This document shows, in pieces, positions 3,140 through 37,975 of a stretch of 64,000 nt of DNA; within the stretch, counting starts at the first letter, position 1, and each line of letters starts with the position of its first letter. The notes under the pieces were generated by a model. The model saw only the letters and a program-made list of their open reading frames with translations. It did no database searches and was not told the DNA's origin. This DNA is from Candidatus Latescibacterota bacterium (GTDB lineage Bacteria > Latescibacterota > UBA2968 > UBA8231), in contig JAPYRN010000003.1 of NCBI GenBank assembly GCA_029941565.1, positions 107,358-171,357 on the forward strand, written 5' to 3'. The position numbers and the translations under genes were made by a program.

Positions 3140-3828
3140 CTTCCAGAGCGGGCCATCACCCGGCACTGGCCATCGTCGAGACCGACGACGACGATGTCGG
3201 TGAGGCCGACGAAGAGGCCGTTTTCGACAACACCGGGGATCTCGTCGATCGTGCGATCCAGTGATCCGGCATCACCGATGCCATTGGGGAAGTGGCAATC
3301 GAGGATAAAGTTGCCATTGTCGGTGACAAATCGCTCACCGTCATCACCAAGGCGTAACTCGGCGCGCTGGCAGAGGTCCAGCAGGCGCAGTTTGGCCAGT
3401 CCCCAGGCGAAGGGTATTACCTCCACTGGAAGAGGGGCCCGAGTACCGAGGCGATCGACGAGTTTTCCTGGATCGACGATGATGATCTCGAGGCTACTCG
3501 CGGCGGCGACGATCTTCTCCCGCAGCAGTGCACCGCCGAGCCCTTTGATCAGTTCGAGATCGGGATCGACTTCGTCGGCGCCGTCAATCGTCAGATCGAT
3601 GGCGGGATTGTCCTCCAGAGTTTGGATGTCGAGGCCCAATTGTTCACCCAATGCGGCGGAGGACTCGGAGGTCGGCACGCAGCGAATCTCAAGACCTTCT
3701 TCCTGCACGCGGTCCCCAAGGGCACGAATAGCGAATTCTGCCGTGGAACCGGTACCCAGCCCCACCACCATGCCGTCCTGGATATATTCCACCGCCCTGC
3801 GGGCAGCCAATTCCTTGTGATCAGACAT
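3133..3828 (-). CDS. rpiA: Ribose-5-phosphate isomerase A
   Basis: 231 aa with MSDHKELAARRAVEYIQDGMVVGLGTGSTAEF and DGADEVD motifs. Confidence 0.9.
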   Translation of the reverse strand: MSDHKELAARRAVEYIQDGMVVGLGTGSTAEFAIRALGDRVQEEGLEIRCVPTSESSAALGEQLGLDIQTLEDNPAIDLTIDGADEVDPDLELIKGLGGALLREKIVAAASSLEIIIVDPGKLVDRLGTRAPLPVEVIPFAWGLAKLRLLDLCQRAELRLGDDGERFVTDNGNFILDCHFPNGIGDAGSLDRTIDEIPGVVENGLFVGLTDIVVVGLDDGQCRVMARSGSQ

Positions 3829-7395: not shown

Positions 7396-7807
7396 GGGCT
7401 GTCTCCCTTCGGGCGTACTCGCAGCACAGCGTGGGCGAGCACATTCATGAGCAGGTATCCCGGCGTGGGGACCGCCGAGAGGTGATGCCGCAAAAACTCG
7501 CCTCCCACTACGCCGGAGGCAACCACTTTCACATCGGTTTGCCGAATCCACTGATATCAGGCGGAAGGGGCGCCCACCACATTGGAAAGACTTTCCTCAG
7601 AATCCTCTGAACGCCGTTCTGTCGTACTTCATACAACTTACATATATACAATGATTTAAGATGTTTATTACGAGTGATGGGAGGGTGGCACACCCCTTGC
7701 TCAAAAGACCACATGGATCCGTATGCACACGCAGGCTTTTGCGTCGTCCTGGCAACGTCACAACGGGATCGACAATGATCGAAGGCATCTTCATTTCCGC
7801 TTGAGGC

Positions 7808-8259
7808 ATGTTACCAAAATCCACACGCCACGAAGCGATTGCCAACAACCTGGCCAACATCGAAGTGCCCGGTTTCAAGCGGGATGCCATGTTTCTGCGC
7901 GAAGTCCAGGAAGCGATTCCGGTGACTACCCGGACTGGCGGATCAACCGCTTCGATGGTATGTGGACGGACTTTGAGCAGGGCAAGCTCAGACGCACGGG
8001 GGGTATGTTCGGTGTAGCCATCTCCGGAAAAGGGTTCTTCGCCGTGCAGACACCGGACGGAGTCCAGTACACCCGCATTGGAACATTCGCCCGCAGCAAC
8101 CAGGGGGTCCTCGTCAATATGCTGGGCCAACCTGTGCTCGACGTGGGGCGAGCCTATCGATGTACCACCTTCTCGCAGCCTTTGATCGACGCCAATGGTA
8201 TCATCGAGGGTCGCGATGAACTGCTCGGTATCGATAAGGTTCTCGGCGTCGTCCGATGA
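7808..8259 (+). pseudogene. flgF: Flagellar rod protein remnant (FlgF/FlgB-like), frameshifted near 7920 and C-terminally truncated
   Basis: Frame 2 (7808-) reads MLPKSTRHEAIANNLANIEVPGFKRDAMFLREVQ, the rod-protein N-terminal motif. Frame 1 (to 8259) reads DFEQGKLRRTGGMFGVAISGKGFFAVQTPDGVQYTRIGTF, the FlgF/G core. The two frames do not join, and the total length is about 150 aa versus about 250 aa expected. Confidence 0.55.
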
Positions 8260-8299
8260 CGATGCCACACTTTGTGTCAGCATTGGAGAGGGAGTAATA

Positions 8300-9109
8300 G
8301 ATGAGCAGGGCCCTGTACACCGCTGCGACGGGCATGATCGCCCAACAGATGAACGTGGACAACATCGCCAACAACCTGGCGAATGTGACACGACAGGACA
8401 AAAAAAAGAAAGCTTGAGTTCCAGGATCTTCTTTATCAGCAACTGCGCCTCGCCGGGGCGACACAGAACGAGGGTGCGCAGGTGCCAGTAGAACTACAGA
8501 TAGGTTATGGCACACGCTCGGTGGCGACGCAGAGAATCTTTTCTCAAGGGACGGTGATCTCGACCCGGGCCTCGGTGCCGGTGCGCATTAAGGATATGGC
8601 TCGTCTGCAACTGGGTGAGGAGATACAGCTCACAGGCATGGGACTGATCATCGGCCAGGAGGGCACAGGGGACGGACGTCAGGCGAGTTTTACGCTGCGC
8701 ATGTTGGCCAACATGATGAAGCGCATGCAACTGGCGGTGGATCCAACCCAGATCCGGGTGCGCAATGTCGCCGCCGTGAGCACGACGGCGACGTTGTCTC
8801 CCTATCACCGTAAGGGGAGCCGCATAGATGTGCAGGTAGCCTCTCTCGGTGATGCCGAAACCCTCCAGAGGGCACGTTGTTGTGCACGCCACTTCTCGAC
8901 CAGATGGCCAGGTGTATGTGCAGGTGCAGGGCCCGGTGAGTGTTGGTGGCTTCAGCCTGGGTGGTGGTGATGCCGGTTCAGTGCTGAAGAACCACACCGT
9001 CGTAGGCAACATCCCGAATGGTGGTCTGGTAACGGCGGAAATAGAGCGTTTGCAGGACATGGACGGCCATATCGAACTCCTGCTCTTTGAGGGCAAGGGC
9101 ACAGTCTGA
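8300..9109 (+). pseudogene. flgG: Chimeric flgG 5' end fused by deletion to flgI internal region; multiple frameshifts
   Basis: [30 protein letters not shown] (FlgG N-terminus) then a frame break inside the A8 run at about 8395-8402. This is followed by FQDLLYQQLRLAGATQNEGAQVPVELQIGYGTRSVATQRIFSQG (FlgG), which runs directly into VRIKDMARLQLGEEIQLTGMGLIIGQEGTGDGRQASF...SRIDVQVASLGDAETL (FlgI). Two more frame changes at about 8865-8900 lead to RPDGQVYVQVQGPVSVGGF...GNIPNGGLV (FlgI). The flgG 3' part, flgH and the flgI 5' part are absent. Confidence 0.6.
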
Positions 9110-9393
9110 TCCGTGCCCAGGATATCATCCTCGAGTTGATGTATGCCCTGGATCAACAGTTGTTAGATGACGGCAATGAGTTGGCACTGAATCTGCAGCG
9201 ACTCTATCTGTACTGTTATCGCCGACTCGTACGCGCCAATACACGCCTTGATCGTGCAGCGATCGAAGAGGTGATCGAGTTGTTCAATAATCTCCTCGAG
9301 GCATGGGGAAAAGTGGCCGCCCAGAGCCCTGAAGGCCCACCTGTGCGAGATCGACCCTCGGTGGTCCTTCATCGATCTTCGGGACCAGAGTGA
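9106..9393 (+). pseudogene. fliS: fliS (flagellin-specific chaperone) 3' fragment, 5'-truncated at the junction with the flgI remnant
   Basis: LIRAQDIILELMYALDQQLLDDGNELALNLQRLYLYCYRRLVRANTRLDRAAIEEVIELFNNLLEAWGKV matches the C-terminal two-thirds of FliS. No N-terminal region or start codon is found. Confidence 0.5.
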
Positions 9394-9661
9394 ACGAGCT
9401 GCCCACCAGTTGCTCGACGACACCCGGCAGCAGTTACGTCAGGTCGGAAAAGGCCGCAGAGCATCCCGCGGCTATCACCGCCAGCCGTTCTCTCAAGAAG
9501 CCCGGTTCGTTGACAACGTGCGTTAAACGCTCAGCACCAGCTACCCTCTCCTCGTTCCACCCCGTGTGGCCCGCTCCGTACTCTGTCACAGGCGGATGTC
9601 ACCCCGATTGGGTGATTGTCCGATCCTGACGCCGGATCCTGACGCCGATGGTATATTGGGC

Positions 9662-9688
9662 TAAAGTTTCCAGGCGAAACGCCGATAT
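9662..9688 (+). promoter_or_regulatory. Sigma-28 (FliA) class promoter: TAAAGTTT-N11-GCCGATAT
   Basis: TAAAGTTT at 9662-9669 and GCCGATAT at 9681-9688, matching the FliA consensus TAAA-N15-GCCGATAA with exact spacing. It lies about 75 nt upstream of the flgM start. Confidence 0.6.
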
Positions 9689-9762
9689 ATACTGATAGAG
9701 CAGTAAAGCGATCGCGCCCGCAATCGCGGTTTGCGTCGCAACTCAGAGCGAAGGAACGCATC

Positions 9763-10335
9763 ATGCGCATCGACGGGGTACCTAACCTTCAGAAGGTTTC
9801 CCAGCCCAATCAGCGCACCGATTCCGCTTGTCCCCGCAACAAAGTGGGGCGAGGTGACGATTCCGTCGAAATCTCCAGTCCTTCAAAGGACGCGGCAGGG
9901 CTGACGGAAGCGCTGAAGGCGGCACCGGAGACAACGAACCCGCGGATTGGCGAAATTCGCGAGCGGGTCCAGTCCGGGTATTACAATTCCGAGGATATTC
10001 GTCGTGAGATTGCCGGCGCCATGCCCGATGCCGAAGGGATCAAGCCCGTCGTCAACGAAGTTGCCGAGGTCCGTGCCGCGCATCGTCAACTCGCCGAAGT
10101 GCCAGATGTGCGCCAGGACCGAGTAGCGGCATCACGGCAGCGCGCCGCGAAGGGTTCTATGATCAACCCGACGTACGCACGCAGACGGCGCAGTCCATCA
10201 TCGACGAGTCTGCGTAAGAAAGATTGTCAACGATCTGGTCAGCCGACCATTTTAGGGCGGCGGATGATAACTTTGAGGGATCGACCTTTTGGTCGGTCCC
10301 TTTTTTCTTTGAGACTCGTTTTCTCTGGGCGCTAA
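9763..10335 (+). CDS. flgM: Anti-sigma-28 factor FlgM homologue with an atypical ~90-aa C-terminal extension
   Basis: The first ~95 aa end in the FlgM C-terminal sigma-28-binding pattern (IGEIRERVQSGYYNSEDIRREIAGAM). The ORF continues to 10335 through a rho-independent terminator at 10277-10310. Confidence 0.6.
   Translation: MRIDGVPNLQKVSQPNQRTDSACPRNKVGRGDDSVEISSPSKDAAGLTEALKAAPETTNPRIGEIRERVQSGYYNSEDIRREIAGAMPDAEGIKPVVNEVAEVRAAHRQLAEVPDVRQDRVAASRQRAAKGSMINPTYARRRRSPSSTSLRKKDCQRSGQPTILGRRMITLRDRPFGRSLFSLRLVFSGR
10277..10310 (+). terminator. Rho-independent terminator: 10-bp stem, 4-nt loop, T-tract
   Basis: GGGATCGACC tttt GGTCGGTCCC forms a 10-bp stem with one G-U pair, followed by TTTTTTCTTT. 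Confidence 0.7.
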
Positions 10336-10336
10336 T

Positions 10337-11281
10337 GTGAGCGAGCAGTCGTTTGTCGGTGTCGATGCGGGGGGGACACGAACCCGGTTGGTCCTCGCTG
10401 ATCATCAGGGTGGTCTTCACGCTAGCGTGGAAGGTGGCCCGGGCGATTATCAGCGCCTCGGAGCGGCGGGAGTCGGTGCTCTTATCACAGAGTTGCTGCA
10501 GCGCCTGCAGCCGGAATTGGTTCCTACCGTGCTCTGCGCTGGGGTCGCCGGTGCGGGACGCGCTCCGGAGCAGCAGGCTTTGTGTGGGGAGCTGGAGAGC
10601 CGGCAGGTGGCTGCACAGATACTCGTGGTCAGCGATGCCCGAGCGGCACTCGAGGGAGCTCACGGTGGGATGGCGGGCCTCGTGTGCATAGCGGGAACGG
10701 GTTCTATGGTATTGGGCCGCAATGCGGCCGGCGAAGAGGCCCGCGCCGGTGGTTGGGGACCCGTATTGGGGGATCAGGGAAGCGCCTATGCGCTGGTCCT
10801 TGAGGGTGTGCGTCGGGCGTTACAGGCTGAGGACGGCAGCGGCGAGGCCACGAGCCTGCAGCGGGATTTGCTCGAGGCGCTGGAGCTTGCCAATTGGACC
10901 GATATCGTCGCCGCTGTCTACGGATCAGGACTCAGCCGTGCCCGTCTCGCCGAGGCCTGTCCCGCCATTTTCGCTGCCGCCCGTAGAGGCGACAGAGTTG
11001 CTGCTGATATCATCGACGCTGCCGCGTATGCTCTTGGAGCCCAGGTCGGCGCTGTCGCTCGCCGTCTGCGACTGACGGCGCCTGTGGCGGTCGCATGTAC
11101 CGGTGGTGTCTTCGCCGAAATCGAGATTCTGCGAGGACCGCTGACCAGGGGTGCCGGTGGCGTGGCTCTCGCACTCCGGCCACCAAGGCTCCCGGGGTGT
11201 CTGGGAGCACTCTTGCTCGCCATGGGCGAGGGCACCGTCAACGTGCCGGAATCCGTCATCTCCAACTGGATCATGCCTTGA
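10337..11281 (+). CDS. BadF/BadG/BcrA/BcrD-type ATPase (N-acetylglucosamine kinase-like)
   Basis: GTG start. The N-terminal FVGVDAGGTRTRLVL phosphate-1 motif and IAGTGS match the ASKHA sugar-kinase fold. Confidence 0.7.
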   Translation: MSEQSFVGVDAGGTRTRLVLADHQGGLHASVEGGPGDYQRLGAAGVGALITELLQRLQPELVPTVLCAGVAGAGRAPEQQALCGELESRQVAAQILVVSDARAALEGAHGGMAGLVCIAGTGSMVLGRNAAGEEARAGGWGPVLGDQGSAYALVLEGVRRALQAEDGSGEATSLQRDLLEALELANWTDIVAAVYGSGLSRARLAEACPAIFAAARRGDRVAADIIDAAAYALGAQVGAVARRLRLTAPVAVACTGGVFAEIEILRGPLTRGAGGVALALRPPRLPGCLGALLLAMGEGTVNVPESVISNWIMP

Positions 11282-28109: not shown

Positions 28110-28480
28110 CGCGTGCTCAGCATTGCCTCCACTGCTGCGTCCCGAATCGTCGATTCCCATGCTGTAACTCCCTCGATCGCGCGTTCCGTGAAGTCTAGAG
28201 TGTACTCCAGTCGGTTCATTGTGGCGCCGACGGTGCCGCGTTCACCAGCGACCCGGTTGATGGCCTCGTCGATCTTGGCCAGCGCTTGTCGCGAGCCGTC
28301 CCGCGTATTGACGGAGATGGTACTGAGATTGAGATGGTCATGTCCTCGAGGTCGTACTCCAGGCGATCGGCGGCGATGGCGTCACTGCCAAGCTGGAAGC
28401 TGCCTCCGATACCTTCATTGATGATCAGGGTGGTCCCATTCAGATCCCCGATCGTCCCATCACCAGAGATCTTCAGTTTT
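28110..28480 (-). pseudogene. Flagellin 3' fragment (variable region plus conserved C-terminal helix), 5'-truncated and frameshifted
   Basis: Reverse strand reads ...RQALAKIDEAINRVAGERGTVGATMNRLEYTLDFTERAIEGVTAWESTIRDAAVEAML, the flagellin C-terminal D1/D0 signature. A separate upstream frame carries variable-domain-like sequence. Confidence 0.5.
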
Positions 28481-28524
28481 TTTCACAAATCGGCCAATAT
28501 CTAAAAAAAAGTGCGACAAACTGC

Positions 28525-28551
28525 TAAAGTTGCGGTCAGATGGTTCCGATA
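28525..28551 (+). promoter_or_regulatory. Sigma-28-like promoter: TAAAGTTG-N-CCGATAG (spacing +1 relative to consensus)
   Basis: TAAAGTT at 28525-28531 and CCGATAG at 28546-28552, about 140 nt upstream of the flagellin start. Preceded by an unusual AT-rich T7/A8 segment at 28472-28510. Confidence 0.45.
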
Positions 28552-28690
28552 GACGGAACAGGAGGCGAGGGCTCGAGTCGCTTCACCTGGTTCTGGAGGG
28601 GATCGGGAGGGGTGAATAGGCGGGTTCCCGGCGGTCGGCGGGAGGGTTCTCTGGAGGGGGACCCTATCTGAGGAGCAAGGAGGCAATAAC

Positions 28691-29339
28691 GTGCCAATCA
28701 GAGTGAACCGCAGCATTTAGGCGATCAACGCGCAGCGCTCGATCTCGTGCAACGTAACGAGAGCCAATCGTCAGTTGGAGCGTCTGTCATCCGGTCTACG
28801 GGTGAATCGCGCCATGGACGATGCCTCTGGTCTCGTCGTCTCCGAAGGATTGCGGAGTGAGGCGGCGAAACTCAACCAGAACGTGCGCAATGCGCAACAG
28901 GGCTCGGTCCTGCTGCAGGTGGCCGGGTCATTGCAGGTGGTTAACAACATGTTCGTGCGCATGCGCTGAACTGGCGCTCCAGGCTACCGGGGTGGGCATC
29001 CCGGATCTTCGAGCCAGCGGAGCCGCCCTCAATCTGGGCCAGTTGTCGGTTTCAAGTATCGATGACGCGCGCTCCGCCATCGCTGGTATCGACCAGGCAA
29101 TCATCACTGTTTCGGCGGCGCGCGGTGATCTTGGCGCGGTGCAGAACCGGTTGGGTTTCTCCATTGGCTTTACCGAGGTGGAAATCGAGAATACCACCGC
29201 TTCCGACGCGACGATCCGCGATGCGGATATGGTTCTAGAAGTTACCGAGTTTACCCGTGCACAGCTGCTCCTGCAGACGAGTAACGCCATGCTGGTGCAG
29301 GCAAATGTGACATCCATCGGGGCGTTGTCCCTGCTCTAA
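28691..29339 (+). pseudogene. fliC: Flagellin (short FliC type, D0/D1 only) inactivated by TAG at codon 10 and a +1 frameshift
   Basis: AAGGAGG RBS 8 nt before GTG 28691. It reads VPIRVNRSI then TAG (28718-28720), then AINAQRSISCNVTRANRQLERLSSGLRVNRAMDDASG...VVNNMFVRMR, then a stop caused by an extra T at about 28957. Frame 0 then continues ELALQATG...GDLGAVQNRLGFSIGFTEVEIENTTASDATIRDADMVLEVTEFTRAQLLLQTSNAMLVQANVTSIGALSLL (flagellin C-terminus). Confidence 0.7.
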
Positions 29340-37899: not shown

Positions 37900-37975
37900 T
37901 GGTGGAGCAGATCGGGATCGAACCGACGACCTCAGCGTTGCAAACGCCGCGCTCTCCCAACTGAGCTACTGCCCC
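37900..37975 (-). tRNA. tRNA-Ala (anticodon UGC), CCA-encoded
   Basis: Reverse complement GGGGCAGTAGCTCAGTTGGGAGAGCGCGGCGTTTGCAACGCTGAGGTCGTCGGTTCGATCCCGATCTGCTCCACCA. G3:U70 alanine identity pair and TGC anticodon in a 7-nt loop. The downstream hairpin CGGCGCC-13-GGCGCCG (37871-37897) followed by a T-rich run on the minus strand looks like its terminator. Confidence 0.92.

Follow-up and report, generated by a model that had tools for sequence, protein, structure and literature searches.

Why would the promoter and the gene of an anti-sigma factor stay in place when the flagellar genes beside them are dead? The question is raised by a 64-kb stretch of DNA (hereafter the window) from a marine member of the Latescibacterota, in which a sigma-28 promoter and an open reading frame (ORF) for a FlgM homologue adjoin the remains of flagellar genes. 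In the circuit of Salmonella and Bacillus, sigma-28 transcribes flgM, FlgM keeps sigma-28 inactive, and FlgM is exported via the finished hook-basal body. A sequence-only reading of the window had offered two answers, namely very recent gene loss or the retention of a sigma-28/FlgM module for non-flagellar targets. The evidence points to the first, and it is probable that the flagellar genes decayed recently and that the promoters persist by inertia.

The promoter and transcript of flgM

The elements around flgM, all on the + strand, are the following:

9649..9657, +: conserved TGGTATATT, which resembles an extended -10 element and lies 4 nt 5' of the sigma-28 -35 box
9662..9688, +: sigma-28 (FliA)-type flgM promoter, with the -35 box TAAAGTTT at 9662-9669 and the -10 box GCCGATAT at 9681-9688
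9696..9762, +: flgM 5' untranslated region (UTR), from the alignment of relatives' upstream DNA
9763-10335, +: ORF of 190 aa, FlgM homologue (Pfam PF04316)
10275..10310, +: flgM intrinsic terminator, a 12-bp stem (10275-10302) that has 7 G-C pairs and leads into a T-run (terminator scan)

The consensus for sigma-28 (FliA) is TAAA-N15-GCCGATAA in E. coli and Salmonella, and that for SigD of Bacillus subtilis is TAAA-N15-GCCGATAT. With a layout of TAAAGTTT-N11-GCCGATAT, the motif in the window satisfies the spacing TAAA-N15-GCCGATA exactly. Its boxes and its 15-nt spacing are those of sigma-28 class-3 promoters, and the gene that it precedes, flgM, is a classical class-3 gene. The difference from those promoters lies in the setting, in that the host is an uncultivated member of the Latescibacterota, the downstream gene is frameshifted, and the promoter is known from sequence alone. 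The sequence-only reading had called the motif an essentially perfect FliA promoter about 75 nt upstream of a FlgM-like ORF, and this description holds. The match is exact, single in the window and conserved across nine lineages, and 75 nt separate the end of the motif from the ATG of an ORF whose match to PF04316 (6.8e-13, 49.1 bits) is well above the cut-off of 25.

Of course, the motif is short, and one could consider the match a product of chance that was never functional. Nothing else speaks for this idea, which is extremely unlikely. The pattern TAAAGTTTCCAGGCGAAACGCCGATAT is found once per 64 kb, at 9662-9688 (+), compared to 0.00 expected from 100 dinucleotide-preserving shuffles, in which there were 0 matches; the relaxed pattern TAAA-N14-17-GCCGATA also gives one match in the window, with 0.02 expected. 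Chance is contradicted by the conservation data as well. In an alignment of the 200 nt 5' of flgM, covering nine lineages with FlgM proteins 38-83% identical to that of the window, TAAAG...GCCGATA(A/T) is present in 9/9 at an equal distance to the start codon, while the letters of the spacer are free to differ. Both boxes are invariant 5' of flgM in L001 and L012-L018, and the same motif, with one more base in the spacer, stands in front of flagellin genes of relatives (L014 3032-3058; L018 3371-3397). Because the spacer varies while both boxes keep to the orthologous position, 9662-9688 is, judging from the alignment, a genuine, inherited sigma-28 promoter. A FliA-dependent start is expected some 7-8 nt past the -10 box, and transcription is predicted to begin near 9695-9697. 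Among five strains there are 0 promoter substitutions over 47 nt, a count that is uninformative since only about 1 would be expected.

The block just upstream of the promoter is conserved too. The counterpart of TGGTATATT is (T/G)GGTATATT in L001, L012, L013, L014, and L015 and TGATATATT in L018, with the offset unchanged in all of them. It may represent a second flgM promoter, read by a housekeeping sigma factor; a scan of 7400-10500 found no full sigma-70 consensus promoter. Downstream, two stretches of the 5' UTR are conserved, one where the transcript is predicted to begin (GATAGAGGCGG in relatives) and the other, TCGCAACTCAGAGCGAAGGAAC, in the ribosome-binding region, with GAAGGA at 9750-9755. 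At 9699, the UTR of the window has a 1-nt deletion compared to strains L032, L038, and L040. It was also considered whether the flgM 5' UTR holds a regulatory RNA, structured or known; this was rejected, as the stability of its fold shows no excess over shuffled sequence (z=0.26) and Rfam, run on the window, returns a single tRNA only and no known regulatory RNA in the UTR.

A single-base deletion in flgM

Automated gene calling reports a 190-aa FlgM-domain protein at this locus, and the NCBI label for one variant from the population is hypothetical protein. The gene had been described as apparently intact, and that description does not survive comparison with the orthologues, which are 151 aa long. 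Judged against them, the flgM of the window is frameshifted by a 1-nt deletion and does not encode a full-length, uninterrupted FlgM. The gene can be divided into the following parts:

9763..10154, +: flgM codons 1-131 in the ancestral frame, coding for the canonical domain of FlgM (aa 33-87) and for the first half of a second, family-specific FlgM-like module
10150..10157, +: frameshift site, a 1-nt deletion between K130/G131 and F132
10155..10217, +: ancestral 3' end of flgM, out of frame, encoding FYDQPDVRTQTAQSIIDESA and closed by the ancestral stop TAA (10215-10217)
10156..10335, +: 59-aa nonsense tail that arose with the frameshift, not ancestral coding sequence

Up to codon 131, the window's protein is 83% identical to P0002, a FlgM of 151 aa. 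The DNA then reads AAGGGTTC at 10150-10157, compared to AA(C/G)GG(N)TTC in relatives, and the DNA alignment places a 1-nt gap, AA-GGGTTC, in the window and in L032, with none of the relatives (5/5) gapped. In the -1 frame the lost FYDQPDVRTQTAQSIIDESA is still legible up to the TAA at 10215-10217, and this out-of-frame tail is 95% identical to the FlgM tail of L001. A homology search with FlgM gave 49 clusters, of which 48 have 151 aa (or differ solely by the called start) and end in GFYDQxxVRxxTAxxIIDE; the sole exception is the cluster of the window, with 190 aa. The frameshift swaps the last 20 of the 151 residues, which are conserved, for 59 unrelated ones that have a counterpart in 0/48 of the other family clusters. 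The new tail runs through the gene's own terminator, which begins 58 nt past the ancestral stop and is enclosed by the frameshifted ORF, and it ends 1 nt before the next gene.

What does the protein lose? FlgM of the family PF04316 has been solved together with sigma-28 from Aquifex aeolicus (PDB 1RP3, 1SC5). The domain in the window resembles it in scoring above the cut-off, in the alignment of the family profile with the solved chains 1rp3_B (A. aeolicus) and 9wsf_B, which extends over positions 15-92 only, and in its position after fliS and flgN, which is typical. The proteins of this clade differ from a typical FlgM of about 88-111 aa in having 151 aa with a second, partial FlgM-like module at residues 88-151, whose likeness to the first gives a BLASTP value of 2e-7; the window's copy differs further in that the frameshift has taken the last helix from that module. 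Against PF04316, the second module alone reaches 25.2 bits and its frameshifted version 20.1 bits, under the cut-off of 25. In the AlphaFold2 model of P0002, the helices run over residues 39-52, 60-70, 77-89, 94-111, 118-129, and 136-150. Confidence is highest at 110-150 (block means of pLDDT 83-92), and the 10-residue blocks of the helix 136-150 have a mean pLDDT of 89-92. Both the F-Y-D turn and this helix, the final one of the module, are lost to the frameshift, and the invariant family residues Y133, D134, T142, and D148 are all within the lost region. By these comparisons, no part of the family's C-terminal module is better conserved than the lost tail. A FlgM of two modules, as in this clade, is a minor variation worth recording.

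The canonical FlgM core (aa 1-92) is complete in the window, including the G-Y-Y helix noticed in the sequence-only reading, and it is the 20-residue C-terminal end of the family that has been replaced. Since the canonical core is untouched, the truncated FlgM may keep some residual function, and it could still bind sigma-28.

A single-base indel beside a short G run (GGG) is the kind of lesion that raises the suspicion of a sequencing or assembly error, which would mean that flgM is really intact. This is very unlikely, and it was rejected on the recurrence of the allele. The identical or nearly identical 190-aa ORF is present in at least 10 independent assemblies (NCBI, ENA, JGI, and Logan) from different runs, several projects, and different assemblers. 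The allele is found in runs SRR21607480, SRR21607485, SRR21607486, ERR14025307, DRR683872, DRR683873, and ERR599008; in TARA_SAMEA2621551 (Tara Oceans) and ERZ838136; and in GCA_029935895.1, GCA_029935935.1, GCA_029936015.1, and GCA_029936055.1. The strains that carry it are about 1% different from the window, and all have the same arrangement of relics (L007, L031-L034, and L038-L040). Indels between these strains fall in the relic zone, with one exception in the flgM 5' UTR, and the housekeeping genes on the same contigs have 0 indels. Since the allele recurs across independent assemblies, the frameshift is not a sequencing error and is, as far as these genomes can tell, real and fixed in the population.

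Could the cell repair the frame instead? Programmed -1 ribosomal frameshifting or transcriptional slippage would restore the 151-aa FlgM, and in support of it one could cite the ancestral tail and stop, which are perfectly legible in the -1 frame, and a hairpin downstream. However, the site, GCG-AAG-GGT-TCT, contains no X-XXY-YYZ slippery heptamer, and the idea was dismissed on that account. Other details also make it highly improbable. The GGG is too short for slippage of the polymerase, the hairpin is about 120 nt off and is the terminator, a recent lesion would leave a clean tail anyway, and the neighboring genes are all dead.

Flagellar relics in the window

Between the gene for a CBM9 protein and flgM there is a stretch of flagellar fragments at 7775-9526:

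7775..8250, +: remains of a rod gene of the flgF/flgG type, interrupted by TGA at codon 10 (7802-7804) and by one or more frameshifts near 7915-7930 (Pfam Flg_bb_rod, LlgE_F_G_D1)
8301..8417, +: N-terminal relic of flgG with 38 codons, truncated after them (Pfam Flg_bb_rod 8.1e-06)
8584..9106, +: what is left of flgI (P-ring protein), covering profile positions 1-169 of 343 and split by a frameshift near 8868-8876 (Pfam FlgI 8e-31, 2.9e-10)
9091..9393, +: 3' two-thirds of fliS (orthologue aa 48 onward), with the 5' part deleted (Pfam FliS 1.7e-12, profile 59-114 of 115)
9365..9526, +: 3' third of flgN (orthologue aa 93-145), with the 5' two-thirds deleted (tblastn with L001 FlgN, 72%, 3e-19)

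That the flagellar genes adjacent to flgM are dead had been stated from the sequence, and these rod, flgG, flgI, fliS, and flgN fragments confirm it. The Pfam scan of all 56 window ORFs gives the best 25 families. The rod gene relic is 78% identical in nucleotides to the 5' part of a 721-aa ORF in L001, and the fliS relic is 85% identical to residues 48-140 of L001 FliS. Strain L039 has the relics of flgI and fliS fused in frame into an ORF of 300 aa, which marks the deletion junction. The age of the damage can be judged from the fragments themselves. They are 80-85% (fliS) and 72-77% (flgN) identical to their intact orthologues, and the intact orthologues are 82-84% (fliS) and 71% (flgN) identical among themselves. 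As the relics are no more diverged than intact orthologues are from each other, inactivation is likely to have been recent.

A second relic locus lies at 28124-29339:

28124..28449, -: C-terminal fragment of a second flagellin gene (tblastn with L014 flagellins, aa 240-361, two frames)
28525..28551, +: second sigma-28-type promoter, TAAAGTTG-N12-TCCGATA, with N16 spacing after TAAA, 5' of a dead flagellin gene
28691..29339, +: flagellin pseudogene with TAG at codon 10, its N-part (28691-28966) and C-part (28992-29336) in different frames and its central domain absent

The pseudogene begins about 140 nt 3' of the second promoter and was recognized by tblastn with L014 flagellins, by three-frame translation, and by Pfam Flagellin_C (3.3e-18). 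The layout of the boxes at 28525-28551 is that of the flagellin promoters in L013, L014, and L018, and the pattern TAAAG-N13-16-CCGATA has 2 matches in the window compared to 0.05 expected. The 64 kb thus contain two sigma-28-type promoters, both 5' of dead flagellar genes and neither (0/2) with an intact gene downstream. Because the second of them precedes a dead flagellin gene, the survival of a promoter is no evidence of its function, and the locus gives direct evidence that such promoters outlive their genes in this genome.

The ancestral state can be seen in motile relatives, in which the locus reads fliC x3, flaG, fliD, fliS, flgN, flgM, then (badF), hrcA, grpE, and dnaK. The full cluster, with a fliD of about 1220 aa, is kept by the P0003 and P0005 lineages (81% FlgM identity) and also by L013, L014, and L018. 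In the sister lineage L001, the structural genes have been lost at the locus, and the 721-aa ORF is an in-frame chimera (FlgF::FliD) of the first approximately 163 residues of the rod protein and the C-terminal half of FliD; fliS, flgN, and flgM are intact. By this comparison, the lineage of the window and its sister L001 are decaying independently. In the window, lesions are present in flgF, flgG, flgI, fliS, flgN, flgM, and two flagellin genes and are reproducible across assemblies, as in unitary pseudogenes.

Recent decay or a retained regulatory module

The history of selection on flgM differs before and after the frameshift. When the frame is repaired, the dN/dS of the window flgM compared to L001, L036, L012, and L013 is 0.07-0.13 (Nei-Gojobori), with a value of about 0.08 between lineages, which means that the gene is, by its substitution pattern, one that was historically under strong constraint between lineages, and the low values indicate that this constraint was lost recently. 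Within the population that carries the frameshift, five strains were compared. The polymorphic codons of the flgM core are 4 nonsynonymous (C23R, G46E, I79V, and P88L) and 0 synonymous, compared to 9 nonsynonymous and 21 synonymous in hrcA, grpE, dnaK, and dnaJ together (Fisher's exact p=0.015, with only 4 codons on the flgM side). Purifying selection on flgM was not detected within this population, the sample being small at those 4 codons. Some carriers of the frameshift retain the ancestral R23, V79, and L88, so the substitutions at positions 23, 79, and 88 postdate the frameshift. One variant in the population has also lost 13 codons (13 aa) of flgM in frame. Several results, then, point to a relaxation of constraint on flgM after the frameshift.

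The course of events would be as follows. In relatives, by analogy with Salmonella and Bacillus, flgM would form an autoregulatory class-3 unit made up of the sigma-28 promoter, the 5' UTR, flgM, and the terminator. The window would represent the 3' end of a late-flagellar cluster that is decaying in a marine member of the Latescibacterota. Deletions would have fused and truncated flgF, flgG, flgI, fliS, and flgN and removed the region from flgK to fliD, and the 1-nt deletion in flgM would have come afterwards, turning its last 20 residues into junk. The promoter, the 5' UTR, the start codon, and the canonical core would be intact solely because the loss is recent, and the promoter would be a relic and no evidence of a retained regulon. 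This account can draw on the observed lesions, their reproducibility, the conservation of the promoter, and the relaxed constraint. Motility and the function of FlgM have presumably been lost along with the genes; as far as this window can indicate, the flagellum and sigma-28 would be gone completely. Of the two answers offered at the outset, very recent gene loss is the one that gains from these data, given the low dN/dS of 0.07-0.13 and relics that are as close to their orthologues as these are mutually.

The other answer was that the module is retained, with the frameshifted FlgM working as an anti-sigma factor and sigma-28 and FlgM being kept for non-flagellar genes. There is a precedent in Chlamydia, in which a sigma-28-type factor is kept without flagella and controls non-flagellar genes. 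Several features of the locus would fit. Nothing is missing from the canonical region (positions 15-92), which matches the solved chains; the promoter, the 5' UTR, the ribosome-binding site, and the ATG are intact; the allele is fixed and geographically widespread; and the sister L001, without structural genes at the locus, has nevertheless kept fliS, flgN, and flgM intact. However, the tail that was lost is the best-conserved and best-predicted part of the family protein, and the core polymorphism that followed the frameshift is all nonsynonymous, with the 13-aa deletion variant besides. Both sigma-28-type promoters in the 64 kb front dead flagellar genes. The gene for the sigma factor was not found within the 64-kb window, and a phmmer search with an approximate E. 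coli FliA sequence, covering the six-frame translation of the window and L001-L030, gave nothing of the fliA/sigma-70 family below E=2. It is also established that FlgM cannot be secreted in the usual way without the flagellar export apparatus, and with dead rod and P-ring genes its export would be implausible. Unlike in Chlamydia, neither fliA nor non-flagellar sigma-28 targets were found in the material searched here, and the constraint on flgM is relaxed. With flgM frameshifted, its constraint relaxed, and the second promoter in front of a dead flagellin gene, retention for non-flagellar targets is left without support and is, in our estimation, unlikely. The fuller form of the idea, in which a FlgM reduced to its canonical domain and made from the sigma-28 promoter would restrain a surviving sigma-28 that controls non-flagellar genes, is a shade less likely again. 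If it were true, the flagellum-less marine Latescibacterota would have a free-living counterpart of the Chlamydia system, and L001 would represent a stage in which intact flgM, flgN, and fliS stand beside the chimeric FlgF::FliD ORF.

On the reading of recent decay, the locus joins a series of known cases. Flagellar cluster degeneration is known in Shigella and Yersinia pestis. The degenerative evolution of flagellar gene clusters has an example in Actinobacteria as well (PMC10746217). The window resembles these degenerating clusters in its piecemeal loss by deletion, frameshift, and nonsense mutation, in the lingering of some regulators or promoters, and in the independent decay of close lineages (here the window and L001). 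It differs from them in coming from marine Latescibacterota seen in metagenomes only and in that the anti-sigma gene has been caught with exactly one lesion. The type of promoter, FlgM, and flagellar decay are already well known, and what is new is an example in an uncultivated marine phylum.

The main value of the analysis is one of correction, as the "intact" 190-aa FlgM of the gene callers is frameshifted and reads through its own terminator. A perfect promoter consensus beside dead genes does not count as evidence that regulation has been retained. The locus would also capture, cleanly and at a datable point, how the flagellum is lost in an uncultivated marine phylum, with the promoters and the gene of the anti-sigma factor as the last to go. 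An origin as a sponge symbiont, suspected from neighboring genes for a sulfatase and CBM9, was considered as a reason for the loss of motility and rejected; the sources of the cluster members are Tara Oceans and metagenomes of the marine water column.

An intact regulator in the sister lineage

The sequence-only reading pictured flgM as an intact regulator left beside lost flagellar structural genes, and this description actually applies to the sister lineage (locus L001). There, a 721-aa in-frame chimera (L001:6729-8894) has the N-terminus of a rod protein at aa 1 to about 163, with the Flg_bb_rod and LlgE_F_G_D1 domains, and continues as the FliD C-terminal half; fliS, flgN, and flgM follow downstream, all intact. 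The rod-FliD chimera is also present in loci L002-L004 (syntenic L011 was left out of the comparison), and the deletion behind it is independent of those in the window.

The two-module FlgM family and its variants

FlgM of the Latescibacterota-like clade (family clusters P0002-P0049) is 151 aa long and carries a second, partial FlgM-like module that is conserved at aa 88-151. This module alone attains the PF04316 cut-off, and an AlphaFold2 model predicts it better than any other part of FlgM; the alignment of solved FlgM chains is limited to family positions 15-92. Its counterpart in the window is as follows:

10024-10217: second FlgM-like module, matching family aa 88-151

One population variant of the frameshifted gene, P0054, from the cluster of the window ORF, has a further in-frame deletion of 13 codons (aa 20-32). 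Another NCBI scaffold from this organism, L031 (83.7 kb), has a 100-N gap within flgM (L031:9151-9250), with 55 nt duplicated on either side. The gap is a scaffolding artefact, and flgM is uncalled in L031 because the artefact interrupts the gene.

Upstream and untranslated regions

The sequence TGGTATATT (9649-9657), 4 nt 5' of the -35 box of the flgM sigma-28 promoter, resembles an extended -10 element, and an element of this type is conserved at the identical offset in L001, L012-L015, and L018. It may be a second flgM promoter for a housekeeping sigma factor; a scan of 7400-10500 with the sigma-70 consensus found no full promoter. In enterics, flgM is transcribed dually, from class-2 and class-3 promoters, an arrangement that the putative second promoter echoes. 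Further downstream, at 9699, one G is absent from the conserved start-of-transcript block of flgM, so that the window reads GATAGA-GCAG, the block being GATAGAGGCAG in strains L032, L038, and L040; other lineages have GATAGAGGCGG.

In three motile relatives, the 5' UTRs of the flagellin genes are long and share a conserved hairpin-like motif, GGCAAGGATGCC:

L013: ~3200-3290
L014: ~3230-3310
L018: ~3500-3560

The same 5' UTRs have AAGGAGG at the ribosome-binding site, a combination that may resemble the sites at which CsrA binds flagellin mRNAs.

Other features of the window

A second flagellar relic locus lies at 28124-29339, and Rfam matches only a single tRNA gene in the 64 kb:

28124-28449, minus strand: flagellin C-terminal fragment
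28525-28551: sigma-28-like promoter, upstream of the flagellin pseudogene
28691-29339: flagellin pseudogene (TAG at codon 10, central domain missing, frame change)
37903-37975 (-): tRNA gene

Located 3' of flgM is a 314-aa ORF (10337-11281) for a BadF/BadG-type ATPase (N-acetylglucosamine-kinase-like). The sole ORF called at L001:10457-11520 has 88 aa and matches the C-terminus of this ATPase. In the Tara strains (L038-L040) it is called at 191 aa, which is probably a start-calling difference, since these strains have no indels relative to the window.
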